Of a stretch of 64,000 nucleotides of DNA, positions 3,781-42,940 are shown one piece after another. The stretch covers positions 1 through 64,000 of the forward strand of contig JBPGPT010000029.1 of assembly GCA_051047955.1 (NCBI GenBank), in the 5' to 3' direction. Each line of letters starts with the position of its first letter. Position 1 is the first letter of the stretch. The notes under the pieces were generated by a model. That model was given only the letters and a program-made list of their open reading frames with translations. It made no database searches and was not told the origin of the DNA. The DNA comes from Cystobasidiomycetes sp. EMM_F5. Lineage: Eukaryota. Made by a program: the position numbers and the translations under genes.

Positions 3781-5809
3781 ATGCTCAGACTGGCTTGCGT
3801 ACATGCCAGACATGGCACAAAGCAGTCTTGTCGAGGTTTCCGGCTAATGGCATCAAGACCGTACAAAGCAAGTGAACCAACAAAGACGAGATGGTCTGCC
3901 ATTGCACTCGCTGCTCTGCTCGGTGCCGCGACAGCTTCAACGATCCATCTGGCGTTTGGGAGTGTCGAAAGGATTCGAAATGATCACAATCAGATAAAGA
4001 CTGATATCGTAGAACGCCACGATGCGAAAGCAGTGCAAGAGCTGCAGAAGCTGCTCGAAAGCAAGGTGTCCGTAGATCAAGCAGAGATGGATGCATATAC
4101 AAGCAGTCCCAACACGCATTTCCGTACGCTTTACGACTATATTTCCATACGTGTTTTGAGATACTGAAAGACGCACTTTGCAGGGGGACTTGCACCATGC
4201 GCAGTAGTGCACGTCGAAAGTACGCAAGATGTTAGCGAGGTAGTCAAGCTCGCGAGTCGCTATCGTGTGCCGGTCGTTGCATTTGCGGGTGGAACCAGCA
4301 TCGAGGGACAGATTGCAGCTTCTAAGGGCGGCATTATCATCAATCTGTCAAAGATGGACAAGATATTGCAAATCAATGGTGTGTCACAAACTTCTTGTCC
4401 GTCCTTTGCTGAGATCGCATATACAGAAGCGGACGGGGATCTCATTTGTCAGGCGGGCGCGGGCTGGCAAGATATCAATCAACACCTGGAAGAACAGGGG
4501 ATTCCGCTCTTCTTTCCACTAGACCCAGGGCCGTCCGCTACGATAGGTGGAATGGTAGCCACTGGTGAGTACCGGACCAAGCATCGCCAGACTTGCTCAA
4601 ACGAGGTGCGGTAGGATGTAGTGGGACAAATGCAGTTCGCTATGGGACAGCGAGAGCAGAATGGTTTTTAAACCTAACTGTAGTCATGCCTGACGGTTCC
4701 ATCATCAAGACTAGATCTCGAGCGAGGTAATCAATGCCCTCACTTTCTCGGTCAGACATGCTGAGCGGACATCTTTTCCAGGAAAAGCTCTGTCGGCTTT
4801 GATCTGACCAAGATCTTTATCGGAGCCGAGGGGACACTGGGCATAGTTACGGAAGCCACACTGCGATTGGCTCCACTCTTGCCTACACGGGTAGCCGTGT
4901 GTAGTTTTCCCAGCGTGTTTGCGGCTGTAAGCTGCGTAGTGGATGTCGTGAATGCCGGTCTGCCGGTGCAATGTGCCGAGTACTGCGACCCCTTCTCCAT
5001 GCACGCTCTCAATTCATCCAAACTGTGCGAGACGAGATTCGACGAACGCGATACCGTCTTCTTCAAGTTTCAAGGCGATGAAAATGAGACGGGCAGGATG
5101 GCGGATAAGGCTGCAAGGATTATTCAGAAACATAACGGCACGAACATGCGCTTTGCAAAATCAAAAGAAGAGTCGGACGAGATCTGGAATGGAAGAAAAC
5201 AGATGTATTGGAGTTTGTGAGTATTTTCGCACTATGGGTTTCAGCAAAAATGTCATTGAACGCCACGGGCTGAGACGTTTTATCCAGATTGGCGATGAAT
5301 CCGGGAGGAAAGATCTATTCGACAGACGTCTGCGTACCGTTGAGCAAGCTCCCGAAGCTCGTCCAAGATACAAAGCAAGACTTTGATGCGTGCGGTATAC
5401 GAGCCGGTCTCGTTGCGCATGCGGGAGACGGGAATTACCATGCTGGCATATTGTACTCGACTGAGGAGGAGTTTGAGAAGGTAAAAGCAGCTCATCGAAG
5501 GGTAGGTCCATTTGGCTACATGAATACGCAAGTGACTAACGATGTGGTTAGCTTATGGATAGAGCCATCGCTTTGGACGGAACGGTCTCTGGTGAACATG
5601 GAATTGGCCTGAGCAAGAGGGAGTATGTGGAGAAGGAGCTTGGTTCGGAGACTGTCAAGGTAATGCGGACCGTGAAGGATGCGATAGATCCGTTGGGGCT
5701 GTTCAATCCGGGAAAGATGTGGGTATTCATTGCGTAAATGAATGGCATCATCACAGACTGACTTTGACGTGTACGTCCTTTCGGCAGATTCCCCGACAGA
5801 GAGGTTTAA
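3781..5809 (+). CDS. DLD1: FAD-linked oxidase, mitochondrial D-lactate dehydrogenase (cytochrome)-like
   Basis: Arg-rich presequence plus TM segment; motifs AGGTSIEG, PLDPGPSATIGGMVATG, GAEGTLGIVTEA, HAGDGNYH, GTVSGEHGIG, DPLGLFNPGK. The last exon IFPDREV* ends at 5809. Confidence 0.88.
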
Positions 5810-22874: not shown

Positions 22875-24814
22875 TTACTGAACCACTTTCTTCAGTACGA
22901 GGACAGTCTTCATGCTTCTAAAGATACACTTCATCAGTTTCGCCGTCATTCCTGCGTCAGCTCGGCGGCACTGACTTTGGCACCACGAAGAAGTGTTCAA
23001 CAGGCATCATAGTTACCTCGGTCGTGGCTGGGTGAGGCAGAATCTCCCAGCGGCGTATTACCATGGCCATTATAAGCCGCATTTCTGCCCAAGCCAGACT
23101 AAGAGTCTGTCAGCTTGACATCAAATTCAGCGTGATGCAGAAACCTCACTTCATTCCTACGCAATTCCGAGCTCCAGTACTGAACGGGATGAAGGCGTTG
23201 CGCATCTCCGCAGTCTCGTTGAACCACCTCTCCGGCATGAACCTGTCGCCTTGCACGAAGATGTTGGCATCTCGATGCATCGTGTACGCCGTTGCTGTAA
23301 CATCAGTCCCTCCAGGTAAGAACAGCCCACATAACAGGGTTCCTTCGCTTGGCACAGTTCTCTCCAAAGGGCCGGGGAGTGTAGGCCATCGCCGCAGTAC
23401 TTCTTTCAAGAATGCATTGAACAGAGGCAGAGCCTCAAGATCCTTGAGGCGAGGCGGACTATCAGGTTCAGGCATGGCTGGTCGAAGCTCTTCGCGGATG
23501 CGATTTTGTAAATCCGCATCTCGGGAAAGCTCCCAACTACGGGCAGTACGTCGGCTTAAATGTCTGCAATTTTGTCACGATTGATATCTTACCACCCGTA
23601 TGTCATAGCTGTCGAGGTTGTGTCACTACCAGCAATCAGAATAGCGCCAGCTTCTGTGATCATGTGGGCTTTGGTGATAGCCGGATGTCCTACTGACGCT
23701 TGGTGCAGTGACTTTAGCAACTAGTACAGAAATCCCCGCATCAGTAGCTTCACCAATGGTATGCCGGTTGCCTTACGTTTGGTCTGACAGAGTCAGTGTT
23801 GTCCAATTCGCCACTGCTTTGCATTTCGCGTAGAATGTTGAAGCCGTAGTTTTGGAAGAATTTCTCCGCATTGTATAGCTTTGTCAATGGTGGAATCGCT
23901 CTCGTCGACATCAATCGTGCGGCCAAAGGCAGGTTATCTTTGACGATGGCTGTGCAGCAGTCGATTCATTTCGCTGCCACACTTGGACAGAAATCACGCA
24001 TACCTGCGAAGAAGACAGTGGCCATATTCTCGACGAGAGTGGATAATTTTCCACTCTGAGTCATTGCCATATCCTGTCCATAAGCTAAACTTCCTGCAGC
24101 GATAGTAGATATTACCCAATGAACCTTAGACTGGGGAAACATCGTCTTACCAATGATGTCGAAGGCTGCCAATCGCATCCAACGGAAGATATCGACGCAT
24201 CCTGCGTTATCTTGATCCTTTTGCATCTGAGCAATGAGCTGATTTGCATACATCTCTAGATCCGGCCCGAATGCATCGAGATTTGCTTTTTGAAAAAGCG
24301 GTAGAAGCAAACTCCTGCGGTACTTCTGTTCTTTTAGATCTTCTATAATGAGAGCATGCTCCACACTAGCAATGCGCTTTCCCCGATAACGTGTGACGGC
24401 TTTTGTGAATTTGCCGCCGTACACCTTTTTGAGCTCGTCAGGGTCGCTGAAGCTGCAGAGATTTGGGGAGATTCGGACGATGGGACCTCGCGTCAAGGTT
24501 AGCCGTAAGCCCAGACCTCACAAATCAATAATGCACATACCATACTGTTGGTGCAGTTCATGAATCCATTCGGATCGACGACCCCGCACGACCGCTTGGT
24601 ACGTGTCGGGCAGTGACGTGAATTTGCACAAGAGCGGGCCAGGAACCTTGGCTAGAGGTGAAAGTAATGCTAGATAGATGACATGGCCTAGATGCCGAAT
24701 TAAGACCCCTCCGACTACGATAGTGAGGCCGAGCCAGAAAATGTGATAGTTCTGTTCAAGTGGCGCATATTTGGACAAGTCCAGCGACAGATACTGGGAC
24801 ATGTAGCCAGGCAT
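22875..24814 (-). CDS. Cytochrome P450
   Basis: N-terminal TM, PLAKVPGP, GPIVRISPN, I-helix LIAGSDTTS, K-helix KEVLR, PERW, heme motif FSTGARNCVG. The last exon ...KTVLVLKKVVQ* stops at 22875. Confidence 0.95.
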
Positions 24815-24898
24815 TCAGAACAGTCGCTCGCTCGGTGTGAGAGGCGGCAGCGAATCTGCTCGAGCGAAAGGTGCAGCTAACGCTGGACAGACCAGACG

Positions 24899-24918
24899 GT
24901 CCCACATCTTTATGGGAC
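24899..24918. promoter_or_regulatory. Cluster motif site in the P450 promoter: GTCCCAC plus inverted half-site ATGGGAC
   Basis: GTCCCA-CATCTTTA-TGGGAC, 85-104 bp upstream of the P450 ATG. Confidence 0.7.
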
Positions 24919-25539
24919 GCACGTCTGCCCCACAAATCAGTGCCTGTATAGTATCATCAGGCACGCTAATGGTGCGGCCGTGCTGCTCCTGCAGCAGAGA
25001 GTTGAGGGAGTTTAATGTAGTCAGAATGCACACGGTCTAAGAATGGTCCCAAAGCAACCGGATTTGCCAAAAGCGTCATCGACTTTCTCACGTTGTGAAT
25101 GAAGGATCCGGCGATGACACCAGTATTTTTGCGTGAAAGATGTGCTACCAATACGATCCTCTCCAACAGCGATGCGTCCCTATCACTTCAGTTGACATCC
25201 ATGAGCCACGCATCGAGAGTATTGGGCGAGACGCTTAAGTGAAATTATAGAACTGCTGCTTCTGACCTGATAACAAATTTTGTTCAGATGCGAACAAGAA
25301 TGCTGTATGTTGGCCATCGCCTCCTGTCCTTTCAGAGATTACGTGGTGAGCTCTCTAGATCCTTGATGAGCTTTATTTTCAGAGCGTGTACAGTATAGCT
25401 ACAAAGCGTTACAAAGCGTTCGCTGAGCTTGGCATGGCCAGTCGAATAAGCGACGGCCATGGCGCGGCGGAAAGATGTCCCTATTTTATCACGTAACGAC
25501 GGAATGGTCAGATCCGTCCGGTAGAAGCACCATTTGCGT

Positions 25540-26317
25540 TTAGGCCGTGGTTGGCGGATAGGGCATCATGCTATCCATGCATGCTCCAACATCATTTGCG
25601 ACCAAAAAGCGCGATACCATGTTGTACGTTGCAGCTATTGCTGCCATTTCGACGAGCTGCTGCTCAATGGAGCTCGCTTGACGACGTTGGAGGAGTGCTT
25701 GCCGAACCCGGTTGTGTAGATGATCCGGGATACGAATGAGGCAGGTGCAAGCATCAGCGTAGAGAATGGCTGCCCGCTCGAGCTCGTCAGTGAATGGGTT
25801 CTCGCTCGAGGATGAGTCTATATCTCGTGTTAGATCCGAGACCCAGCTGAGTTGCTCATCTGTCACGCCCTCGTCGCGAGCAGGTCCCTCGTGCTGCATC
25901 CACTCGTAGACTGCACGATTGCGCACTGCAATGCGAAGCACCTTTTTCGTCGTCAGAGGTTTAAATCATCGAGCAAGTCAGTATCAAAGCCATGCTCCCT
26001 CCCATGCTTCTCAATAGACGGAGACGGCGCACCATCAGCTCTCTGATATTTCCTGGAATTGAAGTGCCAGATCTGATAGCACCCAGCAGCGCATTCCAAC
26101 CGAGCTGAGGTTGCAAACACATGAGCTCGACATCTAATGCGACGAAGTAAAGAAGACTCACGGCTACCTTTGGCGCGTGCAATAATACTGCGTCCAGCTC
26201 CAAAAGACCCCCAGCACCTCTTCTCTCGCGGATGGCATCGGCGGCGGCAGACACGCCCGGCTCTGGCCATATCGGCGCAATGTATTGCACGGATCTTTCG
26301 GAACGCGCCATGCCCAT
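25540..26317 (-). CDS. Carboxymuconolactone decarboxylase / AhpD-like family protein
   Basis: IRERRGAGGLLELDAVLLHAPKVA | GWNALLGAIRSGTSIPGNIRELM | LRIAVRNRAVYEWMQH...LVEMAAIAATYNMVSRFLVANDV. No AhpD CxxC motif. Confidence 0.85.
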
Positions 26318-26436
26318 CCCAGCTTGACGGATAGATACGCTGTTTTCAATTAGCGATACTCGTGCAATTGCGCTTCTTCAGCGGGCAATCCGCCGTGCTG
26401 CCGGCCTTCAGCGGGTCCCGCAAGTCAACATTTACC

Positions 26437-26446
26437 GTCCCACATC
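26437..26446. promoter_or_regulatory. Cluster motif site in the bidirectional CMD/FAH promoter (GTCCCACATC)
   Basis: 10-bp identity to the P450 site (24899-24908); about 120 bp from the CMD ATG and 112 bp from the FAH ATG. Confidence 0.72.
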
Positions 26447-26554
26447 ATACTGCCAGAACCCGCGTACGAGCATATCCTATGAACGTCTTAAAGCAACCTC
26501 TTCATTCCCGTACCTGCATATATCCAGTTGCTGCTCGTCTCCTCGAAACACGCC

Positions 26555-27666
26555 ATGCTTGACTGTGAACGGCTCATTCGATTCAGAACGGGCGGAGCTG
26601 TACACTATGGCGAACCCATACTCGACACCGATAGCGCCAATCAGGACTTTCAAAGAGCAGTTCTCAGCGGCAGCGTCCGAGCTAGAGTCATCTCTGCGCC
26701 ATCAGGCATCTTTAGCTCGGATGCAGCCCTGACCTCAGAGCAAGTGCAGGTCGACGAATTACTCTGCCCACTCGACAGACGCGACGTACCAATCATTCGC
26801 TGCATCGGATTGAATTACAAGCAACACAGTACGTTTGTGTTATACTTTGCGACAAACGCTGGCCGTAGTGGCCATAATCGGATGATAGGGTCTGAAAGAG
26901 TTGCCTCCTACAGTTCTTGAAGCTGGCAAATCACTGCCGCCGTATCCGTCCATCTTCTTCAAGCCATCTACTTGTCTGGCCGGACCAGGGGCTGCGGTGG
27001 AAATACCCAAGATCTGTCAGAACCCACCACAAGCCGACTACGAAGGGGAGCTATGTGTGATCATTGGGAAAACAGGCAAGAACATCTCGCTCGGTGATGC
27101 AATGTCGTATGTGTTCGGCTACACCTGCGGAGACGACGTAAGTTCGCGTGCTTGGCAGCGGGAGAAGGAATTGGCCGGAGTAGTGCCCCAGTGGGGTTTC
27201 TCCAAGGGTTTTGATGACTTTGCAGTCATCGGTCCATGCGTAGTGACTAGCAAAGTGGGTATTACTTGATGCGATGCGTTACGAAATGCTGAATGACAGA
27301 CCCGCCAGCTTATTCCCGATCCTGCGGGGCTGCACATGCGTACTCTGGTCAATGGCGAGGTACGGCAGTCTACGCCAATTGCAGACCTCTGCTTCGATGT
27401 CAAAACCCTCGTCAGCTTCATGAGCTCTGGTACCACCTTAGAAGCTGGAACGGTCATCATGACGGGTACGCTGCATTTTCTATACACGACGCTTGCCCAT
27501 CCCCGCCTAATACGATATTGGCGCTTCCTTGACACTTGCAGGAACACCTGGCGGAGTTGGGTTTGCTCGCAAGCCGCATCCGTCTTGGCTGAAAGAGGGC
27601 GATGTTGTCGAGGTGGAGATTACCAAGATTGGCACTCTGCGCCATACAATGTCCGAGGAGAAGTAG
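26555..27666 (+). CDS. Fumarylacetoacetate hydrolase family protein (FAHD/Fmp41-like)
   Basis: IRCIGLNYKQH, PSIFFKP, ADYEGELCVIIGK, GYTCGDDVSSR, SKGFDDF, GTVIMTGTPGGVG, LKEGDVVEVEITKIGTL. Confidence 0.93.
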
Positions 27667-27917: not shown

Positions 27918-30790
27918 ATGACGGCGAAACTCGACCGAACCTGCTCGCACTGCAGCAGGCAGTTCTTGAAACCTGCTCATCTGCGACGGCATCTCGAGGT
28001 CCACGCGAAGAGCCGACCCTTTCTATGTCGTTTGTGTGGAAAATCGCTGAGTCGGGCTGATGCTCTGGCTCGTCATATCCGGACAGCCCACTACAACGGA
28101 ACGTCACAAAGTGCGGTGGACGTTGGGCATTCTGCAGTGCCGCCGCTGGTGGATCCCCTCGCTCAATTGGCGTCAGACCCGGCCAGCGCCGTTAGCGACT
28201 CTGCATGGAGCATGGATGGTGCCGTAGCCCGGACTGACTCTATCGACGTTGCTGTCATCACGTCCACTGCGCGAGGACCAATGAATTCTGCACCACTTCC
28301 TCCGCTTGGTGTGACAGTTGCATCTATACGCGAGCCGCCCGCCAACGACAGGCAGGAGAGAGACGATGTTGCGATATTACAAAGTGCAGGAGAGCTCCTT
28401 GACGTACCGGACTTCGCCAGTACCAATGACCAAAGTCTTGTGGAGCCTGCTCCTCTTGTCAGGGATGACATAAACTTCAGGCAACAGCCGGACAGCCAGC
28501 TTGACAACTTTCTGAATATGCTGGCTTCCATTGGTCAGCCGACTAGCTCTCAAACAGTATATCCCATCTTCGGTAATCAAGATCTACAATCTAACTTTGG
28601 GACAGGAGCAGAGTGGGCGCTTGCCTCTAACGAGGGGAGCGCACCACCAGCGATCCACACTATCTTTGGCGCGAATCCGGCCAACGATGGCCCTTACAGC
28701 TGGCTGGACGATTTTCTCGTTCCCGAATGCTGGAGTAGCGGAGAAATACAGCAGTCGAATATCATTCAGCCTCTCCAACACGGCATGCCTCCGGGGATAC
28801 CGCCTCTCGAGGCACATCTCGAACCGCCGTTTGCTACAATGAGCAATAACGATCACGACGACTGGTCGCTTCCTGGTCATGCATTGTTTGGCCGTATTCG
28901 TGAGAATGATGGCAACAGGACGCACCAGCAGGAGGCGTCACCGGCTGATATTTTGCGAGAACTGGAATTGACGTCGGCGGTGAGCAATCTCAGCGGTGCG
29001 AATGATGCTAGGCTTACAGAGAGCGCTCGTAGGCACCGAGTCGAGATGATGTAATCCCATCGGAGAGCATGCTGGCAGCATGCATTCATCTGTACTTCCG
29101 CGACTTTCATCCACACGCGCGTATACTCCATCGCTCTACTTTTGACCGGCGACAGGCATCGCCCTTGCTCGTCGCGAGCGTGTGTAGCATTGGCTACATG
29201 TTAATGGGTACGGATCATGCGACAGAGAGAGGGCTGTGGATCTTTTATCGATTGCGCCGGGTTATAGCAGCAACAGTACGTGATGACAGTCAAATGCTAC
29301 GTAATCAAGACCAAGCTGGGCTGAATCTGTTCCTACAATCTCTGCCACAATGGCTTCTAGTGGGATTCAGAGCACTGTACCGAGAGGCAACGCTTCATTC
29401 TGCTCCTGGCGGGCACCTTGAATCAGTGCATGTCGCTTTTATTGGGACGTCCAGAGATTTCGTCTTCCGATGAAGTATACAGTGCAGCCCTTATATCGCT
29501 AGCGCGCGCGTTAAAAGGCCGTCAGTGGCTAGACCAGAATCAAATTGACTATGTTGACGTGGCCGACTTGAATGATGACGAGCTGAATCTACGGTGGACG
29601 AGATGGTTCCGACAAGAAATGCTCAGGCGGTGAGTCGAATTGTGGCAAGATGGTGACCTTTCGAAGTATAACTCGTTCGGCATGCCCCTTTTACAGTGCT
29701 TGTCTAGCTACAAACCTGCAAGCTGCCGAGCTGGCGATACGAACCGGGTCCCCTCAAGCGTATTTGAAATTCTTGACGCGACAAGAGAAGTTTAGTGATG
29801 CGCTATTCGAAGCTGAAGACGCCGCATCATGGCGGATACTTCTTAGCCAAAGGCGTGCCGCACGCAACAATGCAGTTTCAGGGAACCAAGATTCGAGCGA
29901 TCTTTTTAGCATGACATGTTTGGCGCAGGAAATCCAGCAGCTGCTCATTGTCGAGAGCATGCAGGATGTCCAAACAATGAAAACGGTATGCGAACCGATG
30001 CGTATCCAGTACGACAGGATGACCCACCTGGCGGAGCAGCTGGGAATCCCGAGAGGCGCTCCAGCCGCAAGAATGTCCTTGGACATGATGTGGCACTATT
30101 GCTGCATGTTTCGGCTTGCAGGTGTCGAACTACTTTCTCAATTCTGCGATAACGTATGGTCTCCGACTGACCGGCATGCCCTTGAGACTTTCAATCACTC
30201 GTTGATGCTACCATTCCTGATGATACCGAAGGGAAGACTGGCCGTCTTGCATGCATGCGCACTTCTGCAGGCGGCCCGCATGGCCGATGATCTTGTTCTG
30301 CTGGCATATCCGTGAGTCTATATTCGAGGGTCTCCTGGATGGGCTCATATAATGCGTACGCAGAATCATCAACCATGCGACGCGCCTTGTCATAGCCTGG
30401 CTGACCATACCACGGTCGGAGAATCGCTCTGCTCCGTCATTGCACATCCGACATACGGATATGAGCGTTAACAATGGCGAGTGGACGAAGCTGGGTCATG
30501 CATTAGATAATGCTGCACCCCAGGGCTCGCCAATAACAGAGCCGCACAAGCTTGTTTCGGCCTTTGTCCTGGACGACATCGGGCGACTCGCTGTTGACGG
30601 ACTATTCGAAGGAAAAGATCCTCGCGAGGACATCGAATGGTGAGCGACAGAATTCCGGGATGGCATCCGTCATATGGTGCTAAGAGCGGCATCAACTGAC
30701 GCGCTATGCAGTCTCAAATCTGCAGTAATTAGACTTCTTCGCCGAGGGGCTTTGTTCCAATGCGACTCTTCTTCACTGCAAAACACATAG
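27918..30790 (+). CDS. Two-finger C2H2 transcription factor with fungal TF middle domain (cluster regulator)
   Basis: CSHCSRQFLKPAHLRRHLEVH and CRLCGKSLSRADALARHIRTAH; 'LYFRDFHPHARILHRSTF...LLVASVCSIG' and 'WTRWFRQEMLRR'. The 3' end is inferred by splicing. Confidence 0.88.
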
Positions 30791-31168
30791 CATATAGCAT
30801 ATCTATGGTTGCTCATCAACACGATTGCATACAAAACCTAGAGATCGGTTGCCTGCGACGGGGCAGTCATATGCAGTCCCGCCGGCAGTCGCGCCGTGCA
30901 AAGGCGCGTTGTGGGCTGGTAACCGCGAAGCCGAGCTGAAGACCGCTGGCAGCGGCTGGGGAGCTGTCTTTTTTATACCCAGTAGCCATCCCGTGTCAAG
31001 CAAAAGCCGAACTCGCTGCCACGTGGTGTGTAGTCGGCTACAAAAGCGCAGCACAAGTCCCAGTCTCCAACGGTTGCACCAGCTTCAGGCCGGTGTCACC
31101 CACCCCACATTGACCATTTGCTCTCTATTCCCCGCGTGGTGCCCCTTGTCCCCGTGATAAACCTATTT

Positions 31169-31175
31169 GTGGGAC
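31169..31175. promoter_or_regulatory. Cluster motif site in the MFS promoter (GTGGGAC)
   Basis: TGTGGGACC is the reverse complement of the P450 site GGTCCCACA; 147 bp upstream of ATG 31322. Confidence 0.68.
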
Positions 31176-31321
31176 CTTGCGGTGGTAACTGTACATGCAG
31201 CCTGCGCCGCCGGAGAGCGTAAGGTCCGCCTCTTATTCCACTGCCAGAAGCCTTCTTGAAGAGAGGCAGATCGAATCGGTGCGTCTCGCTTGTAGACATC
31301 GACACTTCCAAGTCGGAGGAA

Positions 31322-33770
31322 ATGACACTCGACAAAGCTGCGGGTCTCCACGCTATAACGCCTACGGCTTCAGAAAAAGGTCACGACCAGTTCATCGAGG
31401 ACAATACTGCTCAACCCTCCGTCACTCAGAACTTGTCGTATGACAATGATGAAGAAGAGCCGGTTCTGCACTGGCGCACCTGGGTCGCCCTTGCGGCACT
31501 ATGGATGCTCAACTATGTCCAAGTCTTTGCCCTGACAGGACCTCCAGCTGTGGTACGAAGTCCTTGACTCAAACGTATGCTTCTAATTCTAGAGCTGACG
31601 AGAAAGCTACCGTTCGCTAGCTGTCGTACCTCGGCGAGAGCGTAACAGATGGGTCTGTCCAAGAAAAATGGGTGCCGAATGTGCTTTCGTTGGTGCAGGC
31701 CGTTGCGGGTCCCATCATAGTCAGTTTTATCGTTTATTGGCCTCCGTACCCGGCCAAAAGCTGACACGCAGCATCTAGGCTTTCGCATCGGATTCCTTTC
31801 AGAGCCGTAAACTAATCTTACTAGCCACCTGCACATGCTCCTTCGTTGGGTCTGCTATTGCACCAGGGGCTGAGAACATCTACCGCGTGATTGGCGCCCA
31901 AGTTCTTATTGGTGTAGGGTTTGCAAGCGTGCCTTTGGCCTACTGTATTCCGTCGGAAGTGCGTCCTTGAACTTTTTGGTCAGATCCATCGCTGAGCTAT
32001 CACATGGCAGATTATACCGCGACGGTGGAGACCGTGTGAGTCACTACGTAGGGCGACGATCGAAGGGCATAACTGACATATCAGCCTAGTGGCGCAAGCT
32101 AGTGTTCAATTTGCTGCGAATGCGGCTGGCGTTACAGCACCAATGTAAGCCGTAGGTCGCACCTGCAGACCGGGCATCTCTAACACTCGTTTGCTCGTCA
32201 TAGCATTGCAGGCGCATTCACCAAGTACAGTCTTCTAGATGGCTGGAGAAAATTCTATGTACGAGATGCTGAATCACCAGCGCAATCCCTTTTCAGCTGA
32301 TGCTTCGCCGCACATGCCTGTTCCAGTGGGTAGAGATGGGTCTATGGGGTGCGACAGTCGCAGGCATCGCTGTTGCATACCGGCCACCCCGGCGGCGGTC
32401 TCAGTTGGATGACGCTTCTCTGTCTGGCAAGATTAAGAAGCTCGACGTGCCGGGTATGCTTCTAGTACGCGCAGTCACAATTCCCAGCAAGTGCGCGGTC
32501 TGGCTGAGGAGTGTTATTGTCTATACTAGCTGGCTGCAGGCCTGACACTGTTACTCACCGGCCTGGGTCTTGGCGCCAACCCGTATCCGTGGTCGAGCGG
32601 CAGAGTCGTAGGTACCCTGGCTTCGGGATGTGCCACTCTGGTCGCGTTTGGAATTTATGAATGGAAAGGTGCGTTACTGTGCTTGACGCAGCCGCTCAGT
32701 CTGGGAGGTTGACATCGACTTTGGCAAAACGATCAGTGAACCCAATTGGCATCTTTCATCACGCACTTTTCACTGGTTCTTGGCGCATCTTCCCACTTCT
32801 GCTTGCACTCATGTTTATCGAGGGTGTCATGTTATTCACGGTCATCATCTTCTATCCCGTCATGTAAGCGCACTGTGACTGATTCGGAGCTACACAAGGC
32901 TGATCAAAAAACAGTACGGGGGTGCTGTTCGAGCCTGATCCCTTGCTTCAGACCGTTCGGCAGGCGCCTTTCCAGACTGCCGCTATGTGTTCAAGCGTCA
33001 TCTATGGCATTTGGGCAAGCAAGTATAGGACTCTGCGCTGGCCTCTTTTTGCAGGCTTTGTATTCTTTACAGCCGGCTTAGGTAAGAGTGACGTGCAGGT
33101 TTTGGCTACTTACCGTCTTGACTGAGCAAAACTATGCTACAGTCGGTATGGCTACAGTTCAGCTGAACACGTCTACCAGCTTTGTGGTCTTCAACGGATT
33201 AGCCGGTCTTGGATTTGGAGCACCCCTCGTTCTTATCATTTCGGGAGCGCAACTCGCGACTCCTCAATCGCTCATTGCTACTGGCACTGCTGTTATTACT
33301 AGCACGCGAGCTGTTGGTGAGTATACAAGGATGATCACCATGGACCTAGGAACCGAGAGCTGATGTGTAGGAGACTCTCAGCCGCAGCGGTCTTCACTGC
33401 CATCTACGCTGCAGCCGTCAATACGAGATCAGCCACTTATGTCCCCACTTACGTTGCGGAGGCAGCGGTCAGCGCTGGATTGCCTCGGTCGTCGGTGGGA
33501 GCGTTTGTCGAAGCGCTCGCAACTAAGAACAATGCAGAGCTCGCGGCCATTCCGGGTATCAACCCTAGCATCATTGGGGCAGGCGTGAAGGCACTGCTTC
33601 AAGCACTTGCGGACAGCTTCCGCGTGGTCTATATCATCGGGGCCGCTTTTGGTGGACTGGCGTGCCTCATCTGCCTGTTGCTCGGCGACCAATCTGCAAC
33701 GATGAATTACCACGTTGACGCTCCGATGGAAGAACTGACGGCAAAACACCGTGAAGACATCAAGGCATAG
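31322..33770 (+). CDS. MFS transporter (14-TMS DHA2 / TRI12-like)
   Basis: EEEPVLHWRTWVALAALWMLNYVQVFALTGPP, ASDSFQSRK, YCIPSEIIPRRWRP, DGWRKFY, YRPPRR, YPWSSGRVVGTL, ADSFRVVYIIGAAFG; many short exons. Confidence 0.9.
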
Positions 33771-34220: not shown

Positions 34221-34270
34221 GTCCCACTATGCTCCAGAGTCTGACTGCCCCGGTACACTACGAGTGGGAC
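34221..34270. promoter_or_regulatory. Paired inverted cluster motif sites in the dioxygenase promoter
   Basis: GTCCCACT (34221-34228) and AGTGGGAC (34263-34270), 94-143 bp upstream of ATG 34364. Confidence 0.72.
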
Positions 34271-34363: not shown

Positions 34364-35637
34364 ATGGACGCTCGCATAAAGATCAAGCGGATAGCCTACG
34401 CAACTTACACGCACTCGGACATGGCGTACACAAAGCAATTCCTGACTGACTTTGGACTGACCGAGGTTTGCGTCATGGATAAGCGACACTACTTCCGGGG
34501 GTATGGCGACCTGCCCTACATCTACATTGCCGAGGAAGGCGAGCAAGACGAGGCAGTCTTTCAGGGCATGGCATTTGAGGTTGAGAGCGAGGAGGAGCTC
34601 CAGCGAGCGTCACGCTTGAAGGTAGTCGGTGCCTGCCAATACTGTGGAATGCTTTTCAGCTGGTTGACGTCACTCCGCTTCATCACCCAGGGTGCTACTG
34701 GTATTCGAGAACTCGACGGTCCAGGCGGCGGTTTGGCAACTACTCTGTATGACCCGATAGGTCTGGCGGTACACCTGGTGTATGGAACGCAGCTTCGCCA
34801 GGTCGATTTACCATCAGACCCCACCTTGCCTGCAAATCAAGGCTTATCCGATAACCGAGCGAAAGCGCGGCCACCTGGTAGCTTCCAGCGCTTTGATACG
34901 ACGTCCTCGGTACCTGTGCACAAGCTTGGGCACTATGTTCTTTATCTTCCCGATTTTCAGGTGTAAGACAATGGTGTCATTCAGCAGCCAGCATCGGCTC
35001 ATTGCATTCTGTTAAGCATGTTCGACTTTTACACCAAGGTACTCAACTTTGCCCCTAGCGATCTTATGATACGCGCCGATGGGAACACGGCGGGCGCGTT
35101 CTTACACTTGGACAGAGGCGACGAGTGGGTAGATCATCGTAAGTGTCGCAATAAATCCTCGGCGTGGCCGTAGCAGAAGGGGGAATTTTAGGCTAATGGA
35201 CACGCTATGGCTGGAATGCAGATACTCTGTTCATTTTTCAGCCGCCCAACTGCACCGAACCCAGACTACACCATGCTGCGTTCGAGGTCTTCGACATCGA
35301 CCATGAGGTGAGATGCTCACGCCGAATTACCTGCCAGAGACTCATATCTCACTGTAAATAGCTCCGCGCACATGAAGAAATGGTGAAGAAGGGTTACCAA
35401 CTAGCGTGGGGAGTTGGTAGACATATCTTGGGCAGTCAGCTGTTCGACTATTGGTATCAAAATGGCGATGGCTTCAAGGTTGAGCACTACGCGGATGGAG
35501 ATCTCGTCAATCAGCGTACCCCTGTAGGCCGTCATCAAATGAGCGCGGGCCCGAAGAAGGAGCGAGACACGTCAATTTGGGGTCCTGATTTTCAGCCAAC
35601 TTTTCACACTACGTCTCCACTGCGTGTCAAGGCGTGA
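34364..35637 (+). CDS. VOC-superfamily (extradiol-type) ring-cleavage dioxygenase, trihydroxytoluene-oxygenase-like
   Basis: Two VOC domains; candidate metal ligands in HKLGHYVL, LHHAAFEV and VEHYADGD; FLHLDRGDEWVDHH; WGVGRHILGSQLFDYW. Confidence 0.88.
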
Positions 35638-36518
35638 CTGCGAGTGTGACCAGAGGTTCATATCATCCTGTTGTACGTGCAAGTCTGACTGATAAAGCTT
35701 AATGATATCATTGCATGCCGTAAACTCCTGAACATACGTGCCATGGCCAGATGATAGTCTCAAGTGGGAAAACCTGAGTCAGCTCGCGGTCGTTGAAGCT
35801 GCGGACTGGGGGAGCGGATTGGGGTAGCTTCAGCGAAAGGGCCTTGGAAGCCCGACGTTCAAGTTCACCAAAAATTCTGTTGGGGACGTTGACGTTGCTC
35901 ACATCTGCGAGCGTCTGCAGTGTCCGGAAAAGCGAAACAGACGGGTTCTGTGTTATTCAGCGAGCGTACGGATCATGGAACTGCTGACTGACTGGCTGCT
36001 CTTGGTTATGGAATACATTGGGCGACTCTGGCTAGCGCGTCCGAGTGCTCTGGAAGGAGCGACTTCGCTTCGGAAGCGAATGCGCACCAGTCATTATGGT
36101 CATGCCAGCTGTGATACAGTCCTTAAATCAACGCAAAGATCGATAAATGCTGCCTCTGCTTGTCCCGGATCCCATATATACTCGGAAATCGTCCATATAG
36201 TAGCTGGTCGCGAATTGCCTTTCAAGTTCCACAGCAAGGCTGACGCTAATCCATGATAGTCGAAGTCTCCATCAGATGTGGTATGGTCTGGATTACTGCA
36301 TCGCTCATTGGACCATCGCAACAGTCTCAAGATGTTGGGTACGCAAGGACGGGTGCGAAATGCCCATGGTGACGTGGAGAAGACAACTCGAGGCAGCGCA
36401 CACGGTGCATACCGGGCTATTGGCTGCAGGTAGAATGGCAGCATGCGAGTCGTGCTGGCGGGTGCCTCTACCGCTGCGGTGCCGCATGCCGAGAGGTTAC
36501 CACAATCAATGTAGACTG

Positions 36519-36525
36519 GTGGGAC
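36519..36525. promoter_or_regulatory. Cluster motif site in the monooxygenase promoter (GTGGGAC)
   Basis: 125 bp upstream of ATG 36650, flanked by a duplicated CAATCAAT. Confidence 0.68.
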
Positions 36526-36649
36526 TCGCAATCAATCCCCACTCGACAGCTGGCGAGGCTTGCTGTACTACTTGCACAATGCTAAACTACTCCTGCTAAC
36601 CTAAAAACTGAAACAATCACTGACATCTGCCAGAAACGACGAGGCCATC

Positions 36650-39052
36650 ATGACCATCGAAGCAGAGATGGCACGGGATCTGCGCTGTCAGGTCCTCATC
36701 GTTGGCGCTGGACCGGTGGGACTGCTCACAGCACTCAAGTTGCATCAAGCCGGCGTGGATGTAGTCATTGTAGATCGTCAACCTGCTAGATACCCTTTAC
36801 CAAGGTCTGGCTTGCTGCGTACGATATGAGGCGATTCGTAAACCCAAAGGCTGATTTCGCGTCCGACAGAGCTGTAACATGCGACCACGAATCTCAGCGA
36901 TCACTGGCTGCTGTTGGGTTGCAAAAAGAGTTGCAAACGGTCCTGGAGCATACATTAGGCAAGGGAGGGGAAAACGGGACTAACTTCTGTTGGCGCGACA
37001 AGGATCATCGATGTCAGTCACGACTACTAGAGCCGATGAGTGGACTCATCTCATATCAAGCGTTATTTCTGTGTAGTGATAGTGGATCTACACTGGGAAC
37101 GACCGACTAGATCCGGCCTGCCATTTGCAAAAGGCTTCGCGCAACCAGAGCTCGAAGGCTTGCTCGAAGACACATGCATAGCTCGGGGCATCAGGATGTA
37201 CCGTGGATACAGTACGCGTAACACTCGCGCCTACTCGTATCGTTATTGATGACATTTTACAGGTCTTAACAGCCTAGCCCAAGATGAATGCAGCGTGAAG
37301 GCAACATTGACACCTCACCAGCGCGAGAAGAAGGCGATCACTGTTGAATCATCACAGGCAGCTTGCCGCATGCAGAGTATGCGTCCAGATCCGTCTACGC
37401 CCTGCTTGAGAGACGCAATCAGTGACGCGGAGCAAGGTCGTACCCAAGAAATTAGAGTCACCGCCAAGTACCTCGTCGGTAGCGATGGTGCTAACTCGAC
37501 CGTCAGACGCCTTGCTGGTATCACAAACACCGAACTAGACTTTGAGAATGACTGGCTCATATTGGACCTGGTGAGATCGCCCAAGCCTCCGAGCCCTATC
37601 CCTCACAGTCTAACAATGCCCCGCTCAATCTTGCCGTCTAGCTTCTTGTAGATGGCTACGAGCCTCCAAAACTCAAAAAACTCGGAGCAGCGCAAATCTG
37701 TAATCCTGCAAGACCAACTACCATCGCTTCGGGACAAAAAAGGCGTCGTCGCTTCGAGTTTATGCGCTTGCCGGGCGAGAGCAGGGAAGACCTTCTTAGC
37801 GACGCAAAAACTTGGGAGTTACTAGGACCATGGGGCTGGACACAGGTATGATGGTGACAATAACGAGCTGGCGACCGAAGATTGACCGATTCTATGCACA
37901 GGGTAACGTAGTCATCGAGCGACGGGTTATATACACATTCCATGCTAGGTGGGCCAACGACTTCTACAAAGATAGGGTTATACTTGGTGCGGTTACTTTC
38001 GCTTTCCACATTATTGCACTCCGCGCACTTCCTGATCGAGGCGGTTTAAACTGACTGCTGTGTTCTGCAGCTGGCGATGCAATGCATCTCATGCCCCCAT
38101 TCATTGGTCAAGGGCTGAACTCAGGCTTTCGTGATGCAAGCGCGCTCGGTTGGAGGATACCACTGCTTGTCTCCGGCATTGCGAATAGCAAGGCATTACT
38201 GGACAGCTATCACCATGAACGCTTCACGCACGTGCGCAAGCTCACTGTAAGCATCATCACTCCGTCATGTCCCCTTTGCTTCAACAACCCAGTGAAAGCG
38301 GGACAAGCACTGACATCGCATTGCGACGATTTCTCTCTGCATCTTGTCTACAGGAGCATTGCATTCTTCTGGGCAAGGTTGTGTGCGAAACAAACCCTGA
38401 TGCTGCCGTCAGACGACATGCCGAAATGCGCGCAAATCGTAAGTCGTGTCAATGCGTCAGTAATCGACGTCCGAAATCTTGGCAGCACGAGGAGTTTCGT
38501 GAAGGCGCCTATGGCTGACGCTTCGCTATCAATTCTGATTCTTCAGCGCCCAAATCTGGCTATGATCCGCCTCTCGGCCGCCCGGGCTTAATGACTGACC
38601 AGGAGGAGAGCGGACGTCTCTCCCTACAGCGGCCCTTGCGATTTGCCATGCAGGGTGGCGGGATGTGCGACAGGCTTGAACGATCAAGCTCAACGGCGCA
38701 ATCTGAATGTCGCGTTTGCGAAAATACTGTGGCATTACCGCTCTTTGACGAGGTGTTCGGCTACGGATGGAAAGTCATCAGCATGACGTGCAGTGAGCCG
38801 CTGGCGGCTGCGCGCCCGGACTTGCGGAGCTTCTTCAAATCGCTCGGTGGTAAGGAAGCGTACATACCACCAGAGTCCGACATCACCGGCGATTACCGAG
38901 ATTGGTTTACAACCTGCCTGAGTCCCGATGCAGTCGTGGTAGTGAGGCCTGACTTCTACGTATATGGCCATGCTCCCATTCAAGCAATTGATGACCTGCT
39001 CGAAGGACTACAGCGCCGCCTTTGCGAGCGGCCTGAGAAGCAGACGATATGA
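36650..39052 (+). CDS. Class A FAD-dependent aromatic hydroxylase, MhpA (3-(3-hydroxyphenyl)propionate hydroxylase)-like
   Basis: The first exon, missed by the ORF track, reads VLIVGAGPVGL...YPLPR | AVTCDHE. Further motifs: FAQPELE, YLVGSDGANSTVRR, RRRFEFMRLPGE, YTFHARWA, GDAMHLMPPFIGQGLNSGFRDA, and C-terminal VVVRPDFYVYG. Confidence 0.92.

Positions 39053-39609: not shown

Positions 39610-42940
<3,331 letters not shown>

Follow-up and report, generated by a model that had tools for sequence, protein, structure and literature searches.

The window analysed here is a 64,000-nucleotide stretch (positions 1 to 64,000 of the forward strand) of contig JBPGPT010000029.1 from Cystobasidiomycetes sp. 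EMM_F5 (assembly GCA_051047955.1). Its DNA is fungal, its genes are spliced, and it carries seven genes that probably form a cluster for the catabolism of aromatic compounds, a substrate class suggested by the family names of their products. One of the seven encodes a predicted regulator with two C2H2 zinc fingers, and the 7-bp word GTGGGAC occurs in promoters that serve every cluster gene except the regulator itself. The helices of the finger pair fit most of this word, regulator and promoter word vary together in homologous clusters, and on balance we lean towards the embedded regulator as the reader of the GTGGGAC sites.

The cluster begins with a cytochrome P450 gene on the minus strand (22900–24802, 3′ end approximate, ATG at 24802), for which Pfam p450 is found on the open reading frames (ORFs) 23149–23574 and 23969–24517. 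It is followed by an ORF pair, also on the minus strand, that is possibly a carboxymuconolactone decarboxylase (CMD)-like gene (25543–26317, ATG at 26317; Pfam CMD, a weak match at E 0.013). The remaining genes lie on the plus strand. They encode a hydrolase of the fumarylacetoacetate hydrolase (FAH) fold family (26555–27666, ATG at 26555; Pfam FAA_hydrolase at E 7.5e-28 and 3.4e-14), the regulator (27918–30643), a TRI12-like major facilitator superfamily (MFS) transporter (31322–33770, ATG at 31322; Pfam TRI12 on two ORFs), a VOC/glyoxalase-fold protein (34364–35636, ATG at 34364) and an FAD-dependent, aromatic-type monooxygenase of the FAD_binding_3 family (36650–39050, 3′ end approximate, ATG at 36650; Pfam on three ORFs). 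The VOC-fold gene is tentatively a putative ring-cleavage dioxygenase (Pfam Glyoxalase at E 0.096, PDB 3b59 at E 0.0066); for this gene and the CMD-like gene all Pfam and PDB matches are below threshold. Housekeeping genes for C1-tetrahydrofolate synthase, replication protein A and chitin synthase flank the cluster. Just past it, a 934-aa open frame on the minus strand (39613–42414) has no Pfam match at E 1e-5 and contains one GTGGGAC, at 40582.

The regulator gene encodes a predicted protein of about 822 aa with an N-terminal C2H2 pair and a Fungal_trans domain. Its exons are placed at 27918–28979, 29033–29275, 29361–29629, 29697–30311 and 30364–30640, with the stop codon at 30641–30643; the joins are a model made by eye from GT..AG sites with continuous frames, on the evidence of the sequence alone. 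Translation of the first ORF (27918–28979) gives the N-terminus MTAKLDRTCSHCSRQFLKPAHLRRHLEVHAKSRPFLCRLCGKSLSRADALARHIRTAH. Finger 1, CSHCSRQFLKPAHLRRHLEVH, has the spacing C-X2-C-X12-H-X3-H and the helix (−1 to +6) KPAHLRR, and finger 2, CRLCGKSLSRADALARHIRTAH, has the spacing C-X2-C-X12-H-X4-H and the helix RADALAR. These are exactly the helices that the preliminary description had read, and the interval that it gave for the DNA-binding domain, 27942–28091 on the plus strand, spans both fingers. The linker between them, AKSRP, has the canonical length of five residues. The pair is of the classical type: both fingers fit C-X2-4-C-X12-H-X3-5-H, have a hydrophobic core and stand in tandem with a linker of about five residues. 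Pfam identifies zf-C2H2 and zf-C2H2_4 on the first ORF at E of about 3e-7, and the nearest solved fingers in a phmmer search are ordinary DNA-binding C2H2 arrays (ZNF568, Aart, Zif268). The contact residues are those of the Adr1/CreA type, namely R−1, D2 and R6 in finger 2 and H3 and R6 in finger 1. Fungal_trans (PF04082) is detected in the next exon (ORF 29033–29470) at E 8.6e-9 over profile positions 1–58 of 262; the remainder of the domain is split across exons, and Pfam gives no separate detection of it. An N-terminal finger pair followed by PF04082 in one protein, as the modelled exon joins give it, is the architecture of HxnR of Aspergillus nidulans.

Ten copies of GTGGGAC occur in the window. 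Eight of them fall within 24.9–40.6 kb, and six of these lie 94–153 bp upstream of start codons of the cluster. The P450 promoter holds one on the minus strand at 24899–24905 (−97 to −103 from the ATG), with ATGGGAC at 24912 and GTGGGG at 24928 nearby. The CMD-like and FAH genes diverge from a shared 237-bp promoter, whose copy is again on the minus strand, at 26437–26443 (−112 to −118 from the FAH start), with GCGGGAC at 26416. The MFS promoter has a plus-strand copy at 31169–31175 (−147 to −153), together with GTGGGG at 31103 and GCGGGG at 31130. The VOC-like promoter carries an inverted pair, GTCCCAC at 34221–34227 and GTGGGAC at 34264–34270 (−137 to −143 and −94 to −100), and the monooxygenase promoter a plus-strand copy at 36519–36525 (−125 to −131), with GTGGGG on the other strand at 36537. 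Each of these promoters has at least one additional (G/A)(T/C)GGG(A/G) site within about 70 bp of GTGGGAC. The other four copies are not in cluster promoters: a plus-strand copy at 36716–36722 is coding and falls within the GAGPVGL (GxGxxG) dinucleotide-binding loop of the FAD monooxygenase, and those at 4621, 40582 and 56771 lie inside the spans of other genes, the one at 40582 being in the long unannotated ORF mentioned above.

A second word was observed in the same promoters. The 9-mer CTGCCAGAA has exactly three copies in the window, all on the plus strand and all downstream of GTGGGAC in cluster promoters (26450–26458, 31241–31249 and 36627–36635; 105, 81 and 23 bp before the FAH, MFS and monooxygenase starts). 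This word may represent another cis-element, or else belong to the transcription start or leader.

The sharing of GTGGGAC was assessed by a count of every 7-mer, irrespective of strand, in five regions ahead of the genes, four of them 300 bp long and the fifth being the 237-bp divergent region; their bounds are 1–2 nt off the exact ATGs. GTGGGAC/GTCCCAC ranks first and is the sole 7-mer present in all five; the same holds when 200 or 500 bp are taken, and with 150 bp it is found in 4/5. Any 7-mer reaches all five regions in 2 of 1000 first-order Markov simulations and in 17 of 3000 draws of real segments from outside the cluster. Across the whole window GTGGGAC is not enriched (10 copies against 6.24 expected, a count that 13 of 100 shuffles reach), nor does GTGGGA stand out (27 against 25.5). 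The lack of window-wide excess, the choice of the motif after inspection of the sequence and the 17 real-segment controls that match it could be taken to mean that the shared 7-mer is a coincidence of chance or composition with no regulatory role. We consider this very improbable, given that the word comes first in an all-7-mer test, that its promoter copies are confined to a narrow range of positions, and that independent homologous clusters show an excess of the very same word (5 copies where 0.52 would be expected; see below). We therefore regard GTGGGAC with considerable confidence as a genuine, cluster-specific cis-element candidate. The GTG-GGA-C motif that had been reported for the cluster is thus borne out, as a local feature of its promoters. 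Among the literature matches listed for GTGGGAC/GTCCCAC, no paper describes it as a fungal cis-element; those matches are incidental primer or guide sequences.

Published zinc-finger modules allow the helices to be compared with this word triplet by triplet. The module table in the excerpted text of PMC3607563 assigns RSDALTR to GTG, QSGHLQR to GGA, RSDHLSR to GGG and TSGHLVR to GGT. In the excerpts of PMC5260015, QRAHLER occupies the GGA position in two designed arrays, and GGGGCGGGG, a GGG triplet, is assigned to a finger that has K at −1 and H at 3; the portions of these two papers that were available contain no Lys −1 module for GGA. The GTG assignment of finger 2 is well founded because RADALAR equals RSDALTR at −1, 2, 3, 4 and 6, and the G-G-N assignment of finger 1 is well founded because KPAHLRR has H3, L4 and R6 in common with GGN modules; both assignments had been proposed in the preliminary description and find support here. 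Asp at position 2 of finger 2 favours G or T as the first base of the finger 1 triplet. The solved Aart array contains a finger with the helix RRDALNV, whose target we take to be ATG. The five bases GTGGG are thus predicted by the finger code with confidence, and by our own arithmetic the chance of finding GTGGG, on one strand or the other, in a random 7-mer is about 6/1024.

The best overall explanation of the locus, and one that we hold to be somewhat better than an even proposition, is that the embedded regulator docks on GTGGGA sites of its own cluster. The two fingers would lie antiparallel on 5′-GTG-GGA-3′, with finger 2 (R−1, D2, A3, R6) reading GTG and finger 1 (R6, H3, K−1) reading G-G-purine. 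The proposed docking sites lie about 95–155 bp ahead of each of the other six genes, in most cases with another G(T/C)GGG(A/G) site next to them, and the PF04082 domain would make activation depend on a pathway metabolite. We infer this protein as the binder, along with its docking register, from the fit between helices and word and from the homologous clusters described next; the sign of regulation and the dependence on an inducer are suggested by analogy with HxnR only, and the labels "activator" and "ligand-responsive" are to be taken in that sense.

Homologous clusters were sought in metagenomes with the conserved C-terminal exon of the VOC-like gene as query, and 80 loci were kept of 457 confirmed. 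A local tblastn search with the window ORFs finds a homologous gene with C2H2 fingers and Fungal_trans in 11 of the 80 (L013, L015, L016, L017, L018, L024, L025, L061, L065, L076 and L077), of which L015, L016 and L017 are near-identical. As in the window, the regulator in these 11 loci is embedded in a metabolic cluster: homologues of the FAH, monooxygenase, P450 and/or MFS genes are no more than a few kb away from it, and the order of the genes varies. The same search finds no homologue of the CMD-like gene in nine regulator-bearing loci. The MFS transporter of the window is 55–58% identical to its homologues in L015 and L067. The latter locus (L067:1–11958) contains VOC-like, monooxygenase, FAH and MFS (58% identity) homologues and no regulator homologue in these 12 kb, so that its regulator is either unlinked or beyond the end of the fragment. 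A phmmer search of exon 1 of the regulator against 1.84 billion representatives gives no usable orthologue among the matches listed, which, the window's own ORF aside, are almost all long proteins aligned over many stretches, probably multi-finger proteins; word-indexed protein searches for a fungal orthologue return six matches for exon 1, none for the C-terminal exon and one for the finger region, all seven from animals, and count as weak negatives; and a metagenome scan with exon 1 gives 124 pattern matches, 0 of them confirmed.

The homologous regulators fall into two types by residue −1 of finger 1. Lys-type fingers, K-(T/H)-E-H-L-x-R, occur in L025, L061, L065, L076 and L077, and Arg-type fingers, R-A-E-H-L-x-R, in L013, L015–17, L018 and L024. 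Finger 2 is R-(S/R)-D-(T/S)-L-(L/I)-R in the homologues, and its contact residues follow the Adr1/CreA pattern. Two peculiarities of these genes may be recorded here. In all 11 homologous regulator genes an intron interrupts finger 2 immediately behind the −1 Arg codon, a position where the window gene has none, and the window finger 1 has P, A and R at positions 1, 2 and 5, where the homologues have T/H/A, E and x.

TG(T/C)GG(G/A) sites crowd the promoters of the homologous clusters, often in arrays with a spacing of about 10 bp. Promoters were bounded by starts estimated from tblastn, as intergenic regions or 500 bp upstream, and counted over nine loci, with L016 and L017 dropped as near-copies of L015. 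TGYGGR occurs 70 times in 8621 bp of promoter and 179 times in the remaining 87900 bp, a density ratio that is the highest of 120 permuted patterns of the same composition; ratios for single loci range from 0.7 (L025) to 10.7 (L076). TG(T/C)GG arrays include seven sites at L018 3878–3946, four at L024 4024–4054, five at L013 3488–3526, five TGCGG at L076 8634–8727 and eleven at L061 8505–8911. In the arrays of L013, L018 and L024 most sites are on the same strand, about 10 bp apart, which is one helical turn.

The exact form of the promoter word co-varies with the finger 1 residue at −1. In Lys-type promoters (4131 bp, five loci) GTGGGAC occurs 5 times against 0.52 expected (Poisson p 2e-4) and GYGGGAC 10 times against 1.19 (Poisson p 5e-7), the latter in four of the five loci, with none in L025. 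In Arg-type promoters (4490 bp, four loci) neither count is significant (GTGGGAC 1 against 0.83 expected, GYGGGAC 2 against 0.97); these promoters favour AATGTGG (13 against 2.2 expected) and TGTGG(A/G)C. The base that follows GYGGG is A 13, G 13, T 2 and C 1 in Lys-type loci other than the window, and A 5, G 12, C 10 and T 8 in Arg-type loci (A against non-A, Fisher p = 0.011). Position 3 of finger 2 (A/T/S) and the second motif base (T/C) show no clean pattern across these clusters: L076 (Ser) has all C, L077 (Thr) has mostly C, and the others are mixed.

A number of observations weigh against the embedded regulator as the reader of these sites, and several of them point to a general factor. 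Catabolic clusters are commonly repressed by glucose, and the sites might be bound mainly by a general, non-clustered C2H2 factor, of which CreA/Mig1 is the obvious candidate, while the embedded regulator acts elsewhere or through other sites. The GYGGR core of the motif is that of the Mig1/CreA consensus, SYGGRG/SYGGGG, in the excerpted text of PMC3897899 (Table 2) and PMC13680592. Matches to SYGGRG (GTGGGG, GCGGGG) adjoin GTGGGAC at about 20–70 bp in three of the five window promoters (24803–25102, 31022–31321 and 36350–36649), and TGYGGR is raised too upstream of VOC-like homologues in loci without a detected regulator. In the 500 bp upstream of that gene its mean number is 3.56 in the nine loci with a detected regulator and 2.94 in the 47 without one (Mann–Whitney p = 0.28), the latter being mostly short contigs where a regulator could lie off the end; the comparison leaves room for a general factor. 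Set against this, the six promoter copies of GTGGGAC do not fit the six-base SYGGRG, as their sixth base is A, and with GCGGGAC at 26416 they end in A-C and not in the consensus G. Moreover, GYGGGAC is enriched only in clusters with a Lys −1 regulator. Were a conserved universal factor such as CreA the reader, one would not expect the site variant to change with the regulator encoded in the cluster, and this is the best argument for the embedded regulator as the reader. On this evidence a general factor as the main binder is unlikely, though it deserves consideration; neighbouring CreA/Mig1-type sites would be compatible with carbon catabolite repression alongside the specific element.

Other points concern the register in which the regulator would read its sites. 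The preliminary description had presented the finger code as an independent prediction of the motif, and here the outcome is divided. The five bases GTGGG fit the code, but the motif was known to its reader beforehand and the last two bases go beyond what the code provides. Lys at −1 is listed with GGG, and therefore the best guess for base 6 is G (GTGGGG), with A merely compatible; base 7, a C in 6/6 copies, is not covered by the code, since finger 1 has Ala at position 2. The specificity of Lys −1 for A had been named as the weakest link, and rightly, as the simple code fails at precisely base 6 in Arg-type clusters: Arg −1 should give a final G by the canonical code, and Arg-type sites show C, G and T about equally. 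This failure at the last code position, together with the conservation of T-G-Y-G-G as the best-conserved bases of the homologous clusters, including a 5′ T beyond the six-base code, and the restriction of all three window copies of CTGCCAGAA to cluster promoters, would suit a regulator that uses another register or element (T-G-Y-G-G with a 5′ T contact, or CTGCCAGAA), the match to the GTGGGA code then being partly coincidental. We find this improbable, since finger 2 agrees with the GTG module in all its contact residues, and Adr1 and Mig1, which have fingers of the same type, have the consensus sites TTGGRG and SYGGGG, which they reportedly read in the canonical register as TTG-GRG and SYG-GGG.

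The remaining points against the embedded regulator as reader concern the distribution of the sites and the sampling of the clusters. To the lack of window-wide enrichment may be added that the regulator's own upstream region has no GTGGGAC, just GTGGAG, GCGGAT and GCGGAC. The broader TGYGGR is only 2.1-fold enriched in the window promoters (p = 0.07, rank 20 of 120); the word that stands out in the window is the specific TGGGAC rather than the general TGYGGR. The bounds of the homologous-cluster promoters were fixed after the positions of GTGGGA had already been seen. The Lys and Arg types may also each be one clade, in which case the co-variation is based on about two independent lineages. 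The earlier claim that a regulator–site pair can be deduced from sequence is partly supported: the code fits GTGGG, the Lys-type co-variation favours the pairing, and bases 6 and 7 go beyond what the code predicts.

A broader proposal is possible, if doubtful. The clusters could belong to an apparently undescribed, widespread family of fungal catabolic clusters (VOC-like, FAH, FAD monooxygenase, P450 and MFS genes) under HxnR-like regulators that co-evolve with their promoter sites, Lys −1 going with GYGGGAC and Arg −1 with arrays of (A)ATGTGG(A/G)C about 10 bp apart. If so, nature would have supplied in this family a set of variants on which the C2H2 recognition code could be tested, and Lys −1 would select A, then C, in a native two-finger protein.

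The closest known system is HxnR. According to the excerpted text of PMC5746545, it has two C2H2 fingers and PF04082, is encoded inside the nicotinate catabolic cluster and acts as a pathway-specific, inducer-dependent regulator; constitutive mutations lie in and near PF04082, and its authors regard a C2H2 factor as unusual, given that pathway-specific fungal regulators are normally Zn2Cys6 proteins. Its site was predicted from the fingers by a web predictor as GHGGGG, relaxed to GNGGDG and mapped on the hxn promoters, and the authors state that the binding sites have not been determined experimentally (PMC8478523, in excerpt). The HxnR site was likewise predicted from the finger code, and therefore a regulator–site pair deducible from sequence has a direct precedent. 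The likeness to the window regulator is one of architecture, an N-terminal C2H2 pair with PF04082, and of context, a cluster with FAD monooxygenases and MFS transporters. The HxnR cluster differs in having a MOCO hydroxylase, which is absent here, where P450, FAH and VOC-like genes are found instead, and its motif ends in GGGG whereas that of the window ends in GGGAC. For the window, in contrast to HxnR, the starting point was the motif itself, recovered by an unbiased count, and it recurs and co-varies in homologous clusters. It is plausible, judging by these comparisons, that the window regulator belongs to the HxnR-like, pathway-specific class of C2H2 and PF04082 proteins and forms a regulator–site pair with GTGGGAC. 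No general principle would be altered by this. It would add a second well-delimited example of a C2H2 factor in a pathway-specific role, with a concrete candidate site and with homologous clusters in which a regulator contact residue and the site variant change together. Such clusters offer a cheap system for testing how the finger code transfers to native fungal two-finger proteins and how Lys −1 reads DNA, and the site could be of practical use in locating unlinked regulon members and in building inducible promoters.

The finger pair itself is best compared with Adr1 and Mig1/CreA, which resemble the window regulator in having (K/R)−1, H3 and R6 in finger 1 and R−1, D2 and R6 in finger 2. 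The finger 2 helices of the metagenome homologues, RRDTLIR or RSDTLLR, likewise resemble that of Adr1, as we take the latter to read. The sites of Adr1 (TTGGRG) and Mig1/CreA (SYGGGG/SYGGRG), as given in excerpts of PMC3897899 (Table 2) and PMC13680592, have the G-G-R core of the window motif and share with it a Y as second base. Adr1 and Mig1/CreA act globally on carbon metabolism and are encoded apart from their targets, whereas the window regulator sits among its putative targets; its finger 1 carries Lys at −1 and Ala at 2 in place of Arg and Glu, and its candidate site ends in A-C. Engineered GNN modules (RSDALTR, QSGHLQR, QRAHLER) share the contact residues set out above, RSDALTR with finger 2 and the GGN modules with finger 1. 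They were selected in the three-finger Zif268/Sp1 scaffold with TGEKP linkers, whereas the window regulator has two fingers joined by AKSRP.

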